A DNA stretch of 64,000 nt from a virus, in IMG/VR virus record IMGVR_UViG_3300017917_003339, positions 28,495 through 92,494 of that record; one strand, written 5' to 3'. The position numbers and the translations under genes were made by a program. Each line of letters opens with the position of its first letter. Position 1 is the first letter of the stretch. The notes under the pieces were generated by a model that ran no database searches, was not told the origin of the DNA, and saw nothing but the letters and a program-made list of their open reading frames with translations. Positions 16,717-56,828 of this stretch are shown in pieces.

Positions 16717-16753
16717 AAAAAAACCCAGTTTAGATTTTACTCTGAACTGGGTC
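16717..16753 (-). terminator. attenuator terminator of tRNA operon 1
   Basis: GACCCAGTTCAGA-GTAAAA-TCTAAACTGGG-T7. Confidence 0.9.
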
Positions 16754-16777
16754 TATAATTTGTACTTGCGTACTTTA

Positions 16778-16879
16778 TTATATTGTTGTCAAGTCTGAAA
16801 ACATGACATACCCAGTCGACCTGAACGGTTTCCCGCCCTTAGGTTGATATTGCGTTTGATATGTTTTAGTTGTTTTCAT
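16778..16879 (-). CDS. leader peptide 1 (K/T/Y/Q/P/G sensor): MKTTKTYQTQYQPKGGKPFRSTGYVMFSDLTTI
   Basis: Manual translation; lies between promoter and terminator; contains antiterminator ACTGGGT at 16810-16816. Confidence 0.88.
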   Translation of the reverse strand: MKTTKTYQTQYQPKGGKPFRSTGYVMFSDLTTI

Positions 16880-16954
16880 AACTTTGTTTTTTGTTTTGTT
16901 TATAAATATGTTGTTTTTTAAAAAAATTCTGTTTTTGTTTATTAATTTTTACAA

Positions 16955-16990
16955 TGCAAAGATACTAACTATTATAATACAAGTCAAGTT
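16955..16990 (-). promoter_or_regulatory. promoter of tRNA operon 1
   Basis: ACTTGACT...GTATCTTTGCA (TAnnTTTG -7 box); same arrangement at all four leaders. Confidence 0.75.
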
Positions 16991-17021
16991 TTTTTGTAAA
17001 AAAATTTAAAATATTTTATAA

Positions 17022-25061: not shown

Positions 25062-25235
25062 GTGTTTTGGTGCTAACTTTCCCACGATAGCACCGTTGCA
25101 GTCTTTTCTTTGGGAGAGGGTCCGAACTGCAAACCCAGAAGTTGTAGCACTTCCTCAGCTGTTACGCTCATTTCCTTTTAACACCTTCCATGGTATGTTA
25201 AAATTCTTTACGTAAGTGTAACCGTCTTACTGTAG

Positions 25236-25308
25236 TGGTACCGACTGGAATCGAACCAGTGACACATGGATTTTCAGTCCATTGCTCTACCAACTGAGCT
25301 ACGGTACC
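25236..25308 (-). tRNA. tRNA-Phe(GAA)
   Basis: ATGGA-CTGAAAA-TCCAT. Confidence 0.93.
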
Positions 25309-25536
25309 TTGAATGGATAAACATTTCCAAGTGTTTACCCTAGCAGTTTTTACGCACTAGCACGGCTAAAAAACTACAAAAAACCTACTCGATGTTTTAT
25401 GCTTGGACAAGGGGCTGCACGAGCAACAACCCAGTTGTTCTGGTACAACTTTAAACCCCAAACTTGAGTCGTTGGCACTGAGTCAATAGTTCCGACACAA
25501 AGATTCCTAGGTTTTTGTGTGTTTCCTATTTAGTCG

Positions 25537-25613
25537 TGGGGGAAGCTGGACTCGAACCAGCGACCTTTCGCTCTCCTAAGACAGCGAACATCTGCCAACT
25601 GAAATATTCCCCC
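25537..25613 (-). ncRNA. tRNA-like RNA with 10-nt anticodon loop
   Basis: TTCGCT-GTCTTAGGAG-AGCGAA; good acceptor and T arm. Confidence 0.55.
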
Positions 25614-25842
25614 GATTGCCTCGGTTAAAAACCGAGGGCTTGTTCCGTGACGCTACCGCCCCAGAGATTTACGTCTTTGTGTTTGATACCACCGCCAGTA
25701 CAAAGTTTCATTATCACAAAGATAAGAGGAGGAACTTTCCTATTGGCTACTACTCTCAAACACCCTACGATGTCTAATTAAAATTACAATGCAAATATAC
25801 TAAGTGTTTTTCAATCTTGCAAGTTTTTTAAAAGTTTTTTTT

Positions 25843-26469
25843 TTAAGAGTTAGGGTAATTTATCAACTTTTCACTAAAATAGTAAAAACTTGTTTTACCC
25901 ATTCTTTTAAACCCTAAATTTTCCCAAAACTTTTTAACTCTTTTATGGCTTGCTTTGTTTTCTCTGTCGTCAATCGCAAAAGGTATAACAACAAACAAAC
26001 TATCAGGTTTACCTATAGTGTCTATTATTTCATGTATTACAGCAGAACCAATACCCATACCTCTATTTTTTTCATTTATTCTAAATAAATCAATATAGAT
26101 ATATTCACTAAACTCTTCCAAACTAAATTTAGTTTTGCTTCTGCTATCAGAATCTTTGAAACACGCATCGAAACCATCCACAAAGTTTTGTGATATAATA
26201 TCACAAAAATCATAAGCTTCTTCAAACCCCATCCAAGAAATGTGACGCATAAAATTTATTTTAACTTCACCAATTTCTTCAACGACATCTTTATTTGTCT
26301 CTTCGTCATATGAATAATTATCAACTATTTTAACGTTAATATCTTTTATATGACCCTCACATTCATAATGGATAGATGTTGAATAGTTTATTTCTATCAA
26401 GTTTTCTCTCAAAAGTTCAATAGAATCTGCCACATCTTCACCTAGCATTAACTCAAAGTATTGTTCCAT
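25843..26469 (-). CDS. GNAT acetyltransferase
   Basis: NRGMGIGS, KFWENLGF. Confidence 0.8.
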   Translation of the reverse strand: MEQYFELMLGEDVADSIELLRENLIEINYSTSIHYECEGHIKDINVKIVDNYSYDEETNKDVVEEIGEVKINFMRHISWMGFEEAYDFCDIISQNFVDGFDACFKDSDSRSKTKFSLEEFSEYIYIDLFRINEKNRGMGIGSAVIHEIIDTIGKPDSLFVVIPFAIDDRENKASHKRVKKFWENLGFKRMGKTSFYYFSEKLINYPNS

Positions 26470-29823: not shown

Positions 29824-30348
29824 CTAAACAGACATCCTTTTAACCATCTTTCTGTATATTCTATCTTCAAAATCTTTCATCAAAGAATCTGGGATTCTAA
29901 TTCCTTTAGATTCGAATTCACCTATAATCTCACGTTTAAGAAATGTACCCTCAACAATTCCATCACCCCATTGGTCACACCAAAGTCCCCAGCTTTTCTT
30001 ACCAACAATCACAGCCTTGACTATGTTTGGGTGTCTGGTTACTATGGGTTTTCCACCAGAGTATTGTCCGTTATCGAATTTTCTAAATGTGTTTTTACCT
30101 TCGGATTCATTGACATCAAATTCAACATTGACGATAGAACCGCAAAAGGTAAGAATACCTTTCCTATAAGAAGATAGAAAGAAATTGAAGATTTCATTGA
30201 AGTTGTCGGAATACTTTGATAACTTTCTATCAAGTCTGTTACCAGTTTCCTTTTTGCGTAATTCAATACGCTCTTGTTTTGTTAGGCTCCCAAGCGGTCG
30301 CCTCCTGATTGTGTTGTTTTCATATTCTTGTGTTTTTTGTTTAACCAA
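29824..30348 (-). CDS. hypothetical protein
   Basis: ORF. Confidence 0.6.
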   Translation of the reverse strand: MVKQKTQEYENNTIRRRPLGSLTKQERIELRKKETGNRLDRKLSKYSDNFNEIFNFFLSSYRKGILTFCGSIVNVEFDVNESEGKNTFRKFDNGQYSGGKPIVTRHPNIVKAVIVGKKSWGLWCDQWGDGIVEGTFLKREIIGEFESKGIRIPDSLMKDFEDRIYRKMVKRMSV

Positions 30349-31085
30349 TTTAATTTATTCAAGTCAATACTTGAATTAGATTTTACAATATGACCATCTG
30401 GAAAATGTTTTATCATATCAGACATACTCAATACTGGAAAATCTTTGTCAAAGTTTGCGTTTGGATGTGACCAACCAAATTTAAACAACCAATTCAACAA
30501 CGCATCAACATCATAGTCATTATAATCATCCGTAGTACAGTTACCAGTTCTTTTAGATAACTTACTACCCTTATAAAACAATAAACCAGCATGTTGAACA
30601 TTTGGAAATTGTTTTTGACCATATACGTTGCAAATCATATCCCACAACTTTTGTTGTTTTGGTAAATTTGTAATGTGGTCCACACCTCTGATTATGTCTG
30701 TAATGTCATAATCATAGTCATCTAATATCGAAGCAAAATTATAGGTTGGATAACCGTTATCTCTAAGGATAACCATATCGTAATCTCCCATGTTTACGTT
30801 TAACGTACCATCGTCTTTTTTAAACCCTATAGCTGTTGCCACTTGTTTGTATCGGTCAAGTCTGCTACTTTGCTTAAATGTTACATCATAATTTAACCCA
30901 AAGTAATTCATTTGTTGATATATGAAATCTACATCTGAATCATTGTTCCTAGACAAATCTGTGTCATCGATTCTAAGGATAAAATTACCATCATTTGATT
31001 TACTCAATAAATAATTGAATAAAGCAGTACGTAATGTCCCTAAATGAAATTTGCCCGTTGGTGAAGGGGCAATTCTTGTTTTCAT
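30282..31085 (-). CDS. glutamyl-tRNA synthetase-like catalytic-domain protein (GluRS/GluQ-like)
   Basis: TRIAPSPTG.FHLG, LRIDDTD, IIRGVDH, KLSKR; no anticodon-binding domain. Confidence 0.85.
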   Translation of the reverse strand: MKTRIAPSPTGKFHLGTLRTALFNYLLSKSNDGNFILRIDDTDLSRNNDSDVDFIYQQMNYFGLNYDVTFKQSSRLDRYKQVATAIGFKKDDGTLNVNMGDYDMVILRDNGYPTYNFASILDDYDYDITDIIRGVDHITNLPKQQKLWDMICNVYGQKQFPNVQHAGLLFYKGSKLSKRTGNCTTDDYNDYDVDALLNWLFKFGWSHPNANFDKDFPVLSMSDMIKHFPDGHIVKSNSSIDLNKLNWLNKKHKNMKTTQSGGDRLGA

Positions 31086-31106
31086 AATACTATTTTTTAT
31101 ATTTTG

Positions 31107-31179
31107 TGGAGCTGACGGGAGTTGAACCCGCATCCTCTACCTTGCAAAGGTAGCGCTCAGCCAGTTGAGCTACAGCCCC
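31107..31179 (-). tRNA. tRNA-Ala(UGC)
   Basis: CTACC-TTTGCAA-GGTAG; G3:U70. Confidence 0.92.
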
Positions 31180-31180
31180 A

Positions 31181-31235
31181 AAATTTCTAATTCTACGCTT
31201 ACAATATGTAGTTCTATGAATTAGTAACAGTCTCA
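31181..31235 (-). repeat. tRNA-spacer structured repeat, copy 3
   Basis: GAGACTGTTA-CTAATTC-ATAG...GCGTA-GAATTAG-AAATTT. Confidence 0.8.
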
Positions 31236-31241
31236 TCTGTG

Positions 31242-31362
31242 CGGACGCAGTGGGACTCGAACCCACAGCTTTTTCGTGACAGGAAAATTAACTAATGCTG
31301 CTGGAGATAACCTTGTCAGGTTATGACTTGTTTTTAACATGTTACCCTTACACCATACGTCC
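31242..31362 (-). tRNA. tRNA-Asp(GUC) with inserted helix+CAGCA module
   Basis: GGACGTA/TGCGTCC, TTTTC-CTGTCAC-GAAAA; ~50-nt insertion after the D arm. Confidence 0.7.
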
Positions 31363-31500
31363 AAAAATACCTTTACATTTCAAAGGTTAAGCAGGTTTAG
31401 TTGCGGACTTTCCTTCCAGTCAGTGCTTCTTTTTCCAGAGATTGCCTCTATACGCACGTTATCTGACAATTTTAACACGAAGCGACCGTGTTAGCAATCG

Positions 31501-31574
31501 TGGAGACTGCGGGAGTCGAACCCGCGACCTTCTGCGTGCAAGGCAGACGCTCTAGCCAGCTGAGCTAAGTCCCC
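31501..31574 (-). tRNA. tRNA-Ala(UGC)
   Basis: TCTGC-CTTGCAC-GCAGA. Confidence 0.93.
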
Positions 31575-31584
31575 AAATATTTTA

Positions 31585-31655
31585 GAAGCGCAATTGGTTT
31601 CGAACCAATGTTTCCAGCTACGCGCCAGCGTCCTAAGCCCCTAGACGATACACTT
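31585..31655 (-). pseudogene. degenerate tRNA (Glu/Asp-type D arm, collapsed anticodon loop)
   Basis: TCGTCTAGGGGCTTAGGAC D arm, ATTGG-TTCGAAA-CCAAT T arm. Confidence 0.5.
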
Positions 31656-31757
31656 TAACTACTCTCAATACAACTGCCATCATATATTGAGTAGAATGGC
31701 CTTGTTACTTCACCTTTCAGTTGGCAGACCTACTTGGTTTTTCACTCACCTTTTTTG

Positions 31758-31831
31758 CCGAGATACTGGGATTCGAACCCAGTTCGCACGCCGTGACAGG
31801 GCGGCATCCTTCGCCAGTGGACCTTACCTCG
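31758..31831 (-). tRNA. tRNA-Asp(GUC)
   Basis: CGCC-CTGTCAC-GGCG. Confidence 0.8.
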
Positions 31832-31837
31832 AATCTA

Positions 31838-31914
31838 TGGCGGTCTGTACGGGACTCGAACCCGTGACCTTCGCCGTGACAGGGCGACATTGTAACCAAC
31901 TCTACTAACAGACC
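31838..31914 (-). tRNA. tRNA-Asp(GUC)
   Basis: TCGCC-CTGTCAC-GGCGA, encoded CCA. Confidence 0.92.
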
Positions 31915-31920
31915 AAATAT

Positions 31921-31996
31921 TGGTAGTCTGTACGGGATTCGAACCCGTGTTTTACCCGTGAAAGGGGCACGTCCTGACCAACTAGACGAACAGACC
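31921..31996 (-). tRNA. tRNA-Glu(UUC)
   Basis: GCCC-CTTTCAC-GGGT, encoded CCA. Confidence 0.92.
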
Positions 31997-32030: not shown

Positions 32031-32669
32031 TTATTTTCTCCCTTTTAACCAACCTTCGTTTAAATAAGTTTCAAGGTCTTCTTTTTTAATTTTTTTGTTA
32101 GTACCATCCTTGGTTATCCAACATGTACCATATTGACTGTTTGTTTCACCAGTCCCAGTACCTTTTCTTTTTTCTGATATTAATTGTTTAGTTTCTTCCG
32201 AATGACATTTACCTTCAAAAGTATTATAATTAATTTTACCTAATTTATGTGCTTTTTTTAATGTTTCAGATGATATTTCTGTATGTTTTTTAAAAAACTC
32301 TTCATCAATTTTTAATTTGTCAGAAAACGCTTTTCCACCAGCCTTAATACATTTCTCCATATGTTCTTTATTAGCAAAACCACCTTGACCACCTTCTTTT
32401 AAATTCATACATAAACCATCAGATATCAACTCTTTTGTTATAATTTCAATCTCTCTAAGAACTAATTTTTCTCTTGTTGGTAAAAATTCTAATATTTCTT
32501 TTGTATGGTTTTCAACACCATATTTCCTAATACTATATCTTAATATCTTACCACTTCCCATGTAACCGTCATCTAATTTCGTAGTTGAATGCATTCCAAT
32601 ATACCATCTTCCTGTTACATTACATGTTGTTTTATATATGTAATGTATATTTGCTTTTTTTCTTGCCAT
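32031..32669 (-). CDS. GIY-YIG (Seg-like) homing endonuclease with NUMOD3
   Basis: YIYKTT..WYIGMH..YMGSG; HSEETKQLISE. Confidence 0.9.
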   Translation of the reverse strand: MARKKANIHYIYKTTCNVTGRWYIGMHSTTKLDDGYMGSGKILRYSIRKYGVENHTKEILEFLPTREKLVLREIEIITKELISDGLCMNLKEGGQGGFANKEHMEKCIKAGGKAFSDKLKIDEEFFKKHTEISSETLKKAHKLGKINYNTFEGKCHSEETKQLISEKRKGTGTGETNSQYGTCWITKDGTNKKIKKEDLETYLNEGWLKGRK

Positions 32670-32726: not shown

Positions 32727-32805
32727 TGGTAGCCTCGACGGGGCTCGAACCCGCATTGCACACCTTGAAAGGATGGCTTCCTAGTCCGATTTAGAAGACA
32801 AGGCC
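32727..32805 (-). tRNA. tRNA-Glu(UUC)
   Basis: CATC-CTTTCAA-GGTG, encoded CCA. Confidence 0.85.
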
Positions 32806-32862
32806 ATGTTTATCGTTTCGGTTACCCCCACGCAGTGCACTTACGCAGGGACCTACTCCTTG

Positions 32863-33026
32863 TAGGAATGAGTGGATTCGAACCACTGACCTTCTCCCTT
32901 ATGATGGGAGTCGTTCTGAATGTGTTTTTTCAACCAACTTAATGGTAATTCATTAAGCACACACCCCGATTGTTGTTATTTACCATCTCCTTAAGGAGCC
33001 AATCAGACCGCTGAACGTACATTCCT
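32863..33026 (-). tRNA. tRNA(CAU)-like RNA with ~90-nt insertion in the D loop
   Basis: AGGAATG/CATTCCT, D stem CGTTC/GAACG, CTCCC-ATCATAA-GGGAG, canonical T arm. Confidence 0.65.
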
Positions 33027-33028
33027 AG

Positions 33029-33101
33029 TGGTACCTCCCAGATTCGAACTGGGGACACCTGCATCTTCAGTGCAGTGCTCTACCAACTGAGCTAAGGTAC
33101 C
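33029..33101 (-). tRNA. tRNA-Phe(GAA)
   Basis: CTGCA-CTGAAGA-TGCAG. Confidence 0.93.
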
Positions 33102-33104
33102 TTT

Positions 33105-33165
33105 TAATTTCGTTGCAAAGATACAACTTATTTTTTAATCTCCAAATTTTCAATGAACTTTTTTT
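33105..33165 (-). promoter_or_regulatory. internal promoter cassette, near-identical to 55065-55125
   Basis: GTTGTATCTTTGCAACG within a ~60-nt repeat. Confidence 0.7.
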
Positions 33166-33180
33166 ATTTTTTTTTTCTTG

Positions 33181-33251
33181 TGGAATCAACGGGAGTCGAC
33201 CCCGTGTCTCTGGCTCTTCAGGCCAGCGCTAAACCCCTCAGCTATGACTCC
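33181..33251 (-). tRNA. tRNA-Phe(GAA)
   Basis: CTGGC-CTGAAGA-GCCAG; variant T loop GTCGACT. Confidence 0.8.
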
Positions 33252-33264
33252 AATTTTTGTACAT

Positions 33265-33295
33265 AAAAAAAGCCTGACTTATTAGGGTCAGGCTT
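33265..33295 (-). terminator. attenuator terminator of tRNA operon 2
   Basis: AAGCCTGAC-CCTAATAA-GTCAGGC-T7. Confidence 0.9.
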
Positions 33296-33323
33296 GTTAC
33301 TATGGTTGAGTTATTTCTAACTG

Positions 33324-33413
33324 TTAACTATTGGCAACACACGACCCTCCAGAAGAGCAATCCTCCTCGGCAGCAAAAAATGCAAAATCAAATATGTTAG
33401 CAAAAGTTCTCAT
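33324..33413 (-). CDS. leader peptide 2 (F/A/D/E sensor): MRTFANIFDFAFFAAEEDCSSGGSCVANS
   Basis: Manual translation; antiterminator AGGGTCG at 33342-33348. Confidence 0.88.
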   Translation of the reverse strand: MRTFANIFDFAFFAAEEDCSSGGSCVANS

Positions 33414-33488
33414 AGTAATATTTTTATGTTTGTTTATAAATATGTTCTTTTTTTAAAAAGTTTATTTTTTGTTTGTTTTTAAATTCTT

Positions 33489-33525
33489 TGCAAATATACG
33501 AACTATTTTAATACTAGTCAAGTTT
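33489..33525 (-). promoter_or_regulatory. promoter of tRNA operon 2
   Basis: ACTTGACT...GTATATTTGCA. Confidence 0.75.
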
Positions 33526-35464: not shown

Positions 35465-35492
35465 AAAAAACCCATCTGGTTAGGATGGGCTT
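35465..35492 (-). terminator. attenuator terminator of tRNA operon 3
   Basis: AAGCCCATC-CTAACCA-GATGGG-T6. Confidence 0.88.
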
Positions 35493-35518
35493 TTTGAGAG
35501 ATACTTATCTTATTCAGA

Positions 35519-35602
35519 TTAGTTAACACACAAGTAGCCCAGCTGTGTTTCCACTAGCAAGCATAAACCTAAAAGGACTAATATGTTAAAAGTATTTCTC
35601 AT
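35519..35602 (-). CDS. leader peptide 3 (L/V/C sensor): MRNTFNILVLLGLCLLVETQLGYLCVN
   Basis: Manual translation; antiterminator TGGGCT at 35536-35541. Confidence 0.88.
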   Translation of the reverse strand: MRNTFNILVLLGLCLLVETQLGYLCVN

Positions 35603-35631
35603 TGTTTTTTATGTGTTTCTAATTAAATATA

Positions 35632-35668
35632 TGCAAAGATACTAAAAGTTCTAATACAAGTCAAGTTT
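35632..35668 (-). promoter_or_regulatory. promoter of tRNA operon 3
   Basis: ACTTGACT...GTATCTTTGCA. Confidence 0.75.
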
Positions 35669-53463: not shown

Positions 53464-53667
53464 ATAAATAAAATAACAATCCCACCCTTGGGTCGTGACG
53501 GGCTACAAAGGGATTAGTGGAATTCCGTGTGTAAGTCACCACTGTACCAGTCCGTATCTACCTTGAATTTAATCAGTCACTGTTGGGAGGCTACCCCTAT
53601 CAACACACCTAGTTTCTTTTCAGGAATATCTTGAAGGTGAAACAAACCTTGATTGTTATTTTATTTG

Positions 53668-54368: not shown

Positions 54369-54476
54369 ATTTAATATTTTTACCGAAACACCGAGTACCA
54401 CAATTACGGTGTGCCTCCACGCCATTCCGTGGACCAATGCTGTTTTTACCCGTGGTTACACCATTCGGTAGGGTAG

Positions 54477-54574
54477 TGGATGTACTGGGACTCGAACCCA
54501 GACTAACGGTACAGACTTACCTCTCCATAGAGTAATTCCAATTGATTATGTCAGTCTTATTAGTAATTACACCC
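54477..54574 (-). ncRNA. tRNA-like RNA (acceptor and T arm, replaced core)
   Basis: GGGTGTA/TACATCC, CTGGG-TTCGAGT-CCCAG. Confidence 0.45.
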
Positions 54575-54579
54575 TTTAG

Positions 54580-55064: not shown

Positions 55065-55125
55065 TAATTCGTTGCAAAGATACAACTTATTTTTTAATTT
55101 CCAAATTTTTCAACGAACTTTTTTT
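55065..55125 (-). promoter_or_regulatory. internal promoter cassette, near-identical to 33105-33165
   Basis: GTTGTATCTTTGCAACG. Confidence 0.7.
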
Positions 55126-56415: not shown

Positions 56416-56596
56416 GTATTTATAATAACAAAAATTTCAATGAACCCACCTTCTTTTTTAAATTTCAGTTCGCCAGTATATCCACTAGCATCTGCCATTT
56501 TTCTGTACTTGTCAACTATGAGGTCAAAATTCTCTGTTAAGTCGACAGCTTTTTCTCTACCTAAACATTTTACTAATTCACCCATAGTCTTAAAAT

Positions 56597-56631
56597 AAAA
56601 AAACCCGACTTAGTTTTAACTTGTCGGGTTT
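56597..56631 (-). terminator. attenuator terminator of tRNA operon 4
   Basis: AAACCCGAC-AAGTTAAAACTAA-GTCGGG-T7. Confidence 0.9.
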
Positions 56632-56653
56632 ATGTTTTATATTGTTTTAAGGT

Positions 56654-56755
56654 TTAGGTCCAAGTCCCTCCACCTTTACAATTAGACATACCCGACTCTG
56701 GGTGACTATTGCGTCTCCAATTTCTCGAAATCATATGTATGTTAATTGTTCTCAT
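56654..56755 (-). CDS. leader peptide 4 (R/I/N/H/M/S/W sensor): MRTINIHMISRNWRRNSHPESGMSNCKGGGTWT
   Basis: C-terminal part of track ORF 56654-56836; antiterminator GTCGGGT at 56690-56696. Confidence 0.88.
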   Translation of the reverse strand: MRTINIHMISRNWRRNSHPESGMSNCKGGGTWT

Positions 56756-56791
56756 TGTTGTTTTATTTTTAATGTTGTTTTTTAAATTCTT

Positions 56792-56828
56792 TGCAAAGAT
56801 ACGAAGACTTTTTATACGAGTCAAGTTT
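56792..56828 (-). promoter_or_regulatory. promoter of tRNA operon 4
   Basis: ACTTGACT...GTATCTTTGCA. Confidence 0.75.

Follow-up and report, generated by a model that had tools for sequence, protein, structure and literature searches.

A tRNA gene array in a giant phage genome is probably gated by a ribosome-mediated transcription attenuator of the leader-peptide kind, in which a stalled ribosome would lead to readthrough into the array. This reading of the locus, here called unit B, is supported: its sequence-level parts are conserved, both of its helices carry compensatory changes, and leaders track the arrays that they precede. We infer the direction of the switch and its response to tRNA supply. 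The stretch of DNA analysed (the window, 64,000 nt) comprises bases 28495–92494 of a 92.5-kb IMG/VR virus record with a CheckV completeness estimate of 26%; it has a G+C content of 35.7% and holds 46 tRNA genes, every one on the minus strand. With tRNA genes clustered on one strand and a homing-endonuclease ORF between them, the window has the organisation of a phage tRNA array. IMG/VR includes complete relatives of up to 362 kb, while the nearest GenBank phage (LR745206, uncultured, 635 kb) has a single gene in common with the window, the GluRS-like gene listed below, and no tRNAs within 20 kb of it. The features of unit B and of the array behind it are as follows.

33491–33521, minus strand: promoter of Bacteroidota type by pattern match, with TTG (-33), a 20-nt spacer and TAnnTTTG (-7)
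33433–33443, minus strand: 5′-UTR box ATATTTATAAA, which repeats AACAUAUUU of segment 1
33324–33413, minus strand: leader ORF of 29 codons plus TAA (ATG at 33413, TAA at 33326–33324)
33360–33404, minus strand: sensor codons 4–18 (FANIFDFAFFAAEED)
33384–33398, minus strand: segment 1 (codons 6–10), which holds the conserved AACAUA box
33336–33350, minus strand: segment 2 (codons 22–26), whose partner is either segment 1 or the terminator 5′ arm
33265–33295, minus strand: intrinsic terminator, with a 9-bp stem (33295–33270), an 8-nt loop and a 7-U tract (33271–33265)
33295–33284, minus strand: segment 3, the terminator 5′ arm and first loop bases
33278–33270, minus strand: segment 4, the terminator 3′ arm
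33180–33251, minus strand: tRNA-Phe (GAA), first gene of array B
33116–33145, minus strand: promoter-like site between the two tRNA-Phe genes, by motif match
33028–33101, minus strand: second copy of tRNA-Phe (GAA)
32861–33026, minus strand: candidate tRNA with a CAU anticodon, its D arm split by an insertion of about 86 nt, read from sequence
32727–32805, minus strand: tRNA-like gene with a UCA anticodon and a weak anticodon stem (37 bits)
32031–32669, minus strand: GIY-YIG/NUMOD3 homing-endonuclease-like ORF within array B
31757–31996, minus strand: tRNA-Glu (UUC) and two tRNA-Asp (GUC)
31106–31574, minus strand: two tRNA-Ala (UGC), with 320 nt of structured sequence between them
30282–31133, minus strand: truncated GluRS-like ORF of 283 aa

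The composition of the leader peptide matches the array. The original prediction had counted five Phe and five Ala residues and noted an EED run, and the ORF translation bears this out: all five Phe codons are TTT, four Ala fall in codons 5–15 with one in the tail, and Glu-Glu at codons 16–17 is followed by Asp at codon 18, which with Asp at codon 9 gives totals of two Asp and two Glu. These four amino acids account for 13/17 of codons 2–18, against a background of 0.234 in the long ORFs of the window (binomial P 5.6e-6), and by this count the leader ranks first among 454 small ORFs in the window (13, versus 9 for the runner-up). Every sensor codon can be read by the anticodons GAA, UGC, GUC and UUC of array B. 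Asn-Ile at codons 6–7 are not sensor residues and belong to the conserved AACAUA box, which is common to leaders of other classes (Asn-Ile is cognate in neither B nor C) and which pairs with UAUGU or GUGUU directly 3′ of segment 2. No Pfam or PHROG family was matched by the leader peptides.

Several features are signs that the leader is translated. It begins 78 nt downstream of the -7 box, behind an A-rich region (48% A, like that of the long ORFs) without a Shine-Dalgarno motif, so that its start context is that of real genes. Among four distinct B-type sequences, codons 8–18 are invariant at the amino acid level and differ only synonymously, while residues change in 8/11 tail codons (19–29) and in three of codons 2–5. 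Within classes, 13/21 substitutions in sensor blocks were synonymous or stayed within the cognate set, compared with 9/37 in tails; 15–40% would be expected for random single-base changes. It is from this substitution pattern and the start context that we infer translation. The 5′-UTR box ATATTTATAAA occurs in only two copies in the window, at 33433–33443 and 16899–16909 (minus strand), in the 5′ UTRs of units B and A, and again in all three leaders of lineage II, a related 248-kb record with three units; it may act as a further promoter, bind a protein or provide another pairing partner.

The promoters have a recognisable type. The general motif TTG-N17-21-TAnnTTTG, which we take to be the consensus for housekeeping promoters in Bacteroidota, was counted 26 times on the minus strand of the window versus 2.5 expected, and a Shine-Dalgarno motif was found before 0/49 long ORFs in the window, whose upstream regions are 48% A. 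The promoter motif and the lack of Shine-Dalgarno sequences fit a host of Bacteroidota type, which is the host that the sequence points to. An extended form of the promoter pattern occurs exactly four times in the window (0 expected), one per leader unit, and nowhere else in the record. A scan of IMG/VR with the promoter pattern gave 31 loci, and a looser pattern gained the lineage II units together with ten unrelated loci that lack tRNAs. In some relatives the extended promoter also occurs away from tRNA units: at six loci in related contigs (L007, L008, L011, L020, L029 and L032) it precedes a 21-codon ORF. This fifth class of loci was rejected as a leader unit, terminator and tRNAs both being absent.

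The RNA of unit B can form competing helices. The terminator (3:4, -13.5 kcal/mol) ends 13 nt upstream of the first tRNA-Phe (start 33251). The proposed pairing of AGGGTCG with TGACCCT is present as AGGGUCG (codons 22–24) against UGACCCU, the end of the terminator 5′ arm and the first loop bases, in seven pairs including one G-U, and the antiterminator proved longer than the 7 bp predicted: folding gave an interrupted helix of about 14 bp, in which UGUUGC also pairs with GUAACA. Energies for the 1:2 and 2:3 regions were -19.8 and -18.9 kcal/mol, and the leader as a whole folded more stably than 200 shuffles (z = -4.5). The protector helix that had been suggested for the early leader segment stood as far as the pairing goes (AACAUAU..GAUUUU with GGAGGGUCGUGUGUU appears in the minimum-free-energy fold), with statistical support that is moderate (p about 0.04–0.08). 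The 1:2 duplex in unit B was worth -11.6 kcal/mol, and 3.7% of shuffled partners did as well (p 0.037); in a test that excluded unit IV-Q, where the terminator had been mis-called, p was 0.003–0.04 in five units and 0.09–0.25 in the others. In the closest B-type relatives the topology of this helix is kept in a different register. Taken alone, the unit B antiterminator did not differ significantly from shuffles, a fraction of 0.165 of which did at least as well; across units, segment 2 paired with its cognate 5′ arm at a mean of -12.3 kcal/mol, compared with -8.3 kcal/mol for the terminators of other classes.

Covariation argues for both helices. The alignment, made with MAFFT and fitted to no structure, spanned segment 2 through the U-tract in 18 units. 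Results for each helix were:

Antiterminator (segment 2 and 5′ arm): 85.7% of cells paired (slid controls 17–45%), 6/7 pairs changing on both sides, 25 compensatory cells, equalled in 0/500 shuffles
Terminator: 99.2% of cells paired (slid controls 15–44%), 6/7 pairs changing on both sides, 32 compensatory cells, equalled in 0/500 shuffles

Two helices that have one strand in common and that both covary are the signature of a switch. In a single column, three changes separate the window B unit from B-type relatives (5′ arm C to U, 3′ arm G to A, segment 2 G to A), so that the window has G-C where relatives have A-U in the same column of both helices. The shorter loop of relatives (CC versus CCC) is matched by AGGUCA in place of AGGGUCG, and in one relative with a different loop another leader segment is used (ACUGUCA with UGACAGU).

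Position of the ribosome would decide between these helices. In kinetic snapshots, that is, a folding model of RNA ending before the 3′ arm and carrying a ribosome mask, the probability that the unit B 5′ arm is sequestered was about 0.6 with the A site at codons 1 to about 15, about 0.03 with the A site at codons 19–29, and 0.34 without a ribosome. This picture was stable across three ribosome footprints; with the small footprint, stalls at codons 14–17 (Ala, Ala, Glu, Glu) favoured the antiterminator less. In 14 units from two lineages the cognate codon block ends where sequestration probability drops, which suggests that sensor codons end where a ribosome would, by the model, begin to cover segment 2. 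Equilibrium folding with ribosome masks and the full terminator was also tried and set aside: it gave no switch, the terminator being formed at nearly every ribosome position, so that any switch must be kinetic, like that of classical attenuators. For several units, the antiterminator is predicted even when no ribosome is present.

Unit B is one of four paralogous units of identical layout in the window. The other three are:

16723–16991, minus strand: unit A, with a K/T/Y/Q/P/G leader, followed by Pro, Gln, Lys, Gly, Tyr and Thr tRNAs
35470–35668, minus strand: unit C, with an L/V/C leader, followed by Cys, Val and Leu tRNAs
56603–56828, minus strand: unit D, with an I/N/H/M/S/R/W leader, followed by Ser, His, Trp, Ile, Met, Asn and Arg tRNAs

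Array B carries the isotypes Phe (two genes), Glu, Asp (two) and Ala (two). No isotype occurs in more than one of the four arrays, which between them serve all 20 amino acids, and the leaders divide these in the same way. Codons for the leader's own array make up 17/17 in A, 13/17 in B, 9/17 in C and 16/17 in D, giving 55/68 for the true assignment of leaders to arrays, compared with 35/68 for the best of 23 wrong pairings; in unit C, the Leu codons match all four Leu anticodons of the array. Among 12 terminator-like hairpins on the minus strand, four have an ORF of 15–45 codons ending no more than 75 nt upstream, and these are exactly the four with a tRNA 19–188 nt downstream.

Other ORFs also stand at the heads of arrays. 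A small ORF, conserved and about 56 codons long (56416–56602, minus strand), lies between the unit D terminator and its first tRNA, placed so that the unit D attenuator would gate a protein gene too. The corresponding position of unit B is occupied in one relative by an inserted ORF resembling homing endonucleases (L039, reverse strand, after 5600).

Leader composition covaries with array tRNA content where arrays have been rearranged. Leaders of types A, B, C and D among the scan loci precede matching arrays, and the leader ORF is retained throughout the relatives' leader units (17–38 codons). In lineage II, whose third unit is D-type, a fused Cys/Val/Leu/Asp/Phe/Ala array is preceded by a leader that is likewise fused and that has no Glu codon; three Glu tRNAs sit instead in the K/T/Y/Q/G/P array, whose leader has gained a Glu codon. 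Lineage III, found through the GluRS-like gene, has a P/D/Q leader before Pro and Asp tRNAs, then an endonuclease ORF, then a second leader, with five Gln codons in a row, before two Gln tRNAs. The three units of lineage IV (182 kb) comprise an L/R/N/I/T/V/C leader that precedes exactly those isotypes, a P/D/Q leader that precedes Pro, Asp, His and Pro tRNAs, and a leader with five consecutive Gln codons before three Gln tRNAs. Over 12 leader–array pairs the summed log10 P was -61.7, a figure to be read in the light of the small number of independent evolutionary events (about four lineages and five classes), since units in one lineage share ancestry. There are exceptions: Trp is missing from the II-A leader and His from the lineage IV leader despite these isotypes being present in the arrays, and the P/D/Q leaders of lineages III and IV contain many Val, Ile and Asn codons foreign to their own arrays.

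The proposed mechanism would run as follows. Transcription would start at the host-type promoter, and a ribosome would load onto the 29-codon leader. With Phe-, Ala-, Asp- and Glu-tRNAs plentiful, it would reach the end of the ORF, where it would cover segment 2 (codons 22–26), or would be released and leave segment 2 to re-pair with segment 1; the terminator hairpin would then form and RNA polymerase would stop 13 nt before the first tRNA-Phe. Slow decoding at any sensor codon from 4 to about 16 would instead stall the ribosome upstream, with segment 1 covered and segment 2 free to capture the emerging 5′ arm of the terminator, and polymerase would read into the array. Because the products are the very tRNAs that are sensed, this would be a negative-feedback loop of supply on demand, extended by the three sister units to all 20 amino acids. 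More tentatively, the four attenuators might amount to a complete homeostat of the tRNA pool for 20 amino acids, each unit acting as an OR gate over its subset and limiting host tRNAs being replaced, a reading that we regard as possible and somewhat short of an even chance. Its triggers might include, for example, host shut-off, mismatch of codon usage, or host anticodon nucleases that cleave specific tRNAs; if it held, the leaders would serve a counter-defence circuit as its sensors, besides being devices of economy.

How much of array B such an attenuator would gate depends on the promoter-like site at 33145–33116, which may, on its sequence, let the distal array bypass the attenuator in this genome. 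A near-identical site occurs in array D (55104–55075, minus strand), each directly 5′ of a canonical-looking tRNA, which suggests that sites 33116–33145 and 55075–55104 derive from a duplicated or inserted promoter–tRNA module. It could then be argued that leader and terminator are real and gate little beyond the first tRNA-Phe, the rest being driven from within and the attenuator serving as a fine-tuner or surviving as an evolutionary remnant. The quality of the motif match and its near-identical copy in array D speak for this. However, a motif match is all that marks the site, leader B retains codons for Ala, Asp and Glu although the matching tRNAs lie past the site, and relatives with compact B arrays, which have no room for an internal promoter, retain the same leader; we consider this account unlikely.

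Three further accounts concern the leader itself. The logic could be reversed or different, with efficient translation giving readthrough (a closely following ribosome blocking the hairpin, for instance) or with translation controlling the processing or stability of the precursor, and it is true that the equilibrium model gives no classical switch and that several units are predicted to reach the antiterminator without a ribosome. This is nonetheless highly improbable, given that the stop codon lies 24–36 nt before the terminator stem, beyond the reach of a terminating ribosome, that a ribosome near the end of the ORF would mask segment 2 and so favour the terminator, and that positive feedback on tRNA supply would make little regulatory sense. 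Slightly more remote again is a regulator made of RNA only, the leader RNA binding a protein or, in the manner of a T-box, tRNAs directly, with the ORF incidental: such a regulator would give a role to the conserved AACAUA and ATATTTATAAA boxes, which have none assigned, but one RNA would need to recognise four to eight different tRNAs, no T-box or other Rfam family was found at threshold, and conservation of the sensor block is at the amino acid level, with changes that are synonymous or within the cognate set. Least credible of all is coincidence, an ordinary terminator or insulator hairpin beside an ORF that arose by chance or encodes a small protein with no link to the tRNAs. Phe codons are abundant in AT-rich genomes and leader C resembles a hydrophobic peptide; against this stand the composition ranking of the leader, the P value over 12 pairs, the association of hairpins with tRNAs, and the joint change of leader and array content in four lineages. 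Nor can the hairpin terminate the upstream gene, because the promoter lies between that gene and the hairpin.

The attenuator reading places unit B beside well-known systems. Multivalent leader attenuators of enterobacteria include thr (Thr and Ile) and ilvGMEDA (Ile, Leu and Val), alongside trp, his, leu and pheA, and these resemble unit B in having a short ORF enriched for regulatory codons, antiterminator and terminator helices that exclude each other (segments 1–4) and, in several, more than one amino acid per leader. Unlike them, the phage unit would regulate tRNA genes rather than biosynthetic enzymes, so that the sensed molecules are the products (the genes downstream of unit B are tRNAs, a homing endonuclease and the truncated GluRS-like ORF, with no biosynthesis gene); its family of leaders would sense up to seven or eight amino acids each, the four units partitioning all 20; and its carrier is a phage of a Bacteroidota-type bacterium without Shine-Dalgarno sequences. 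Rfam leader families scored well below the cut-off of 55 bits in unit B (Thr_leader RF00506, 19.9 bits; Phe_leader RF01859, 14.6 bits), in sub-threshold matches driven by the terminator, and at gathering thresholds Rfam found only tRNA in the entire window. The pheST attenuator of E. coli, with its pheM leader, is similar in that a leader of Phe codons attenuates a gene of the translation apparatus, and differs in controlling a synthetase through a single amino acid, whereas unit B would control tRNA genes through several. The E. coli tRNA-Phe gene pheV was considered as a precedent and rejected, its upstream sequence in K-12 having neither a Phe-rich ORF nor a terminator. T-boxes also use terminator and antiterminator helices to couple translation-related genes to the charging state of tRNA, but bind one uncharged tRNA directly, without ribosome or ORF; the T-box covariance model of Rfam had no match in the window.

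Among tRNA arrays, the tRNA cluster of phage T4 with SegB is likewise a phage array with an embedded homing endonuclease of GIY-YIG type, and we know of no leader-peptide attenuator there. Leader-peptide attenuation is textbook knowledge for genes of amino acid synthesis or tRNA charging; a literature search on attenuation of tRNA genes found no published account, and attenuation of the tRNA genes themselves appears to be the new point. The nearest published functional analogue is the trn L-array of Anabaena sp. PCC 7120, a mobile, endonuclease-bearing tRNA array that responds to translation: it is horizontally mobile, carries a homing endonuclease, is silent by default, and is switched on by impaired translation, with a protein repressor, TrcR, acting at the promoter (PMC8421152, PMC10272220). 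There the signal is general translational stress, in contrast to specific codons in unit B, and attenuation and leader peptides go unmentioned in both papers.

If the attenuator reading is right, it would account for the regulation of the big tRNA sets of large phages, these being made on demand rather than constitutively, and a single leader could monitor up to seven or eight amino acids. The rule that the leader lists the array would be readable in sequence and usable in phage genome annotation. The units would also offer compact natural parts for sensors of decoding speed at chosen codons, and the response of phage tRNAs to depletion of host tRNAs becomes directly testable.

Some genes of array B are unusual in themselves. 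The ORF at its end matched the catalytic domain of Glu/Gln-tRNA synthetases (E 1.7e-46), in keeping with the GluRS-like gene originally predicted; it has no domain but the catalytic one, is close to GluQRS in length and scores below every NCBIfam cut-off. It lies directly behind the Asp and Ala tRNAs, has its own promoter in lineage III, and has homologues of 58–64% identity in nine other IMG/VR contigs. The endonuclease-like ORF shows a DNA match to a homing endonuclease region of phage T4. In the CAU candidate tRNA, the acceptor and the 5′ part of the D arm occupy 33026–33003 and the remainder 32916–32861; neither ARAGORN nor Rfam calls a tRNA at 32861–33026, and the same interrupted arrangement is seen in lineage II (L036, reverse strand, about 1095–1330). 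If this gene is tRNA-Ile2, it would read AUA at codon 7 of leader B. The UCA gene (32727–32805) is possibly an opal suppressor, judging from its anticodon, and, together with genes for CUA anticodons in two relatives (L016 and L035), it raises the possibility that this phage group suppresses or recodes stop codons.

A fifth promoter, of the general type found at the leader units, lies at 25614–25850 (minus strand), upstream of an odd tRNA (25536–25613, minus strand) that has an 8-nt anticodon loop and is possibly a suppressor; a third tRNA-Phe (25235–25308, minus strand) also lies behind it. This locus has no leader ORF and no U-tract terminator. A hairpin, CCCUCGG..CCGAGG, stands directly 5′ of the tRNA, is conserved and is present in lineage II too. 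Gaps of 180–320 nt occur in the arrays at 31180–31499, 31575–31756, 53464–53666, 54369–54578 and 25309–25535 (all minus strand). An ARAGORN call in intron mode at 31362–31241 was dubious and was set aside. The gaps contain T-arm-like ends (GGTTCGA..) and structured sequence with no called tRNA, and may represent interrupted, permuted or degenerate tRNA genes.
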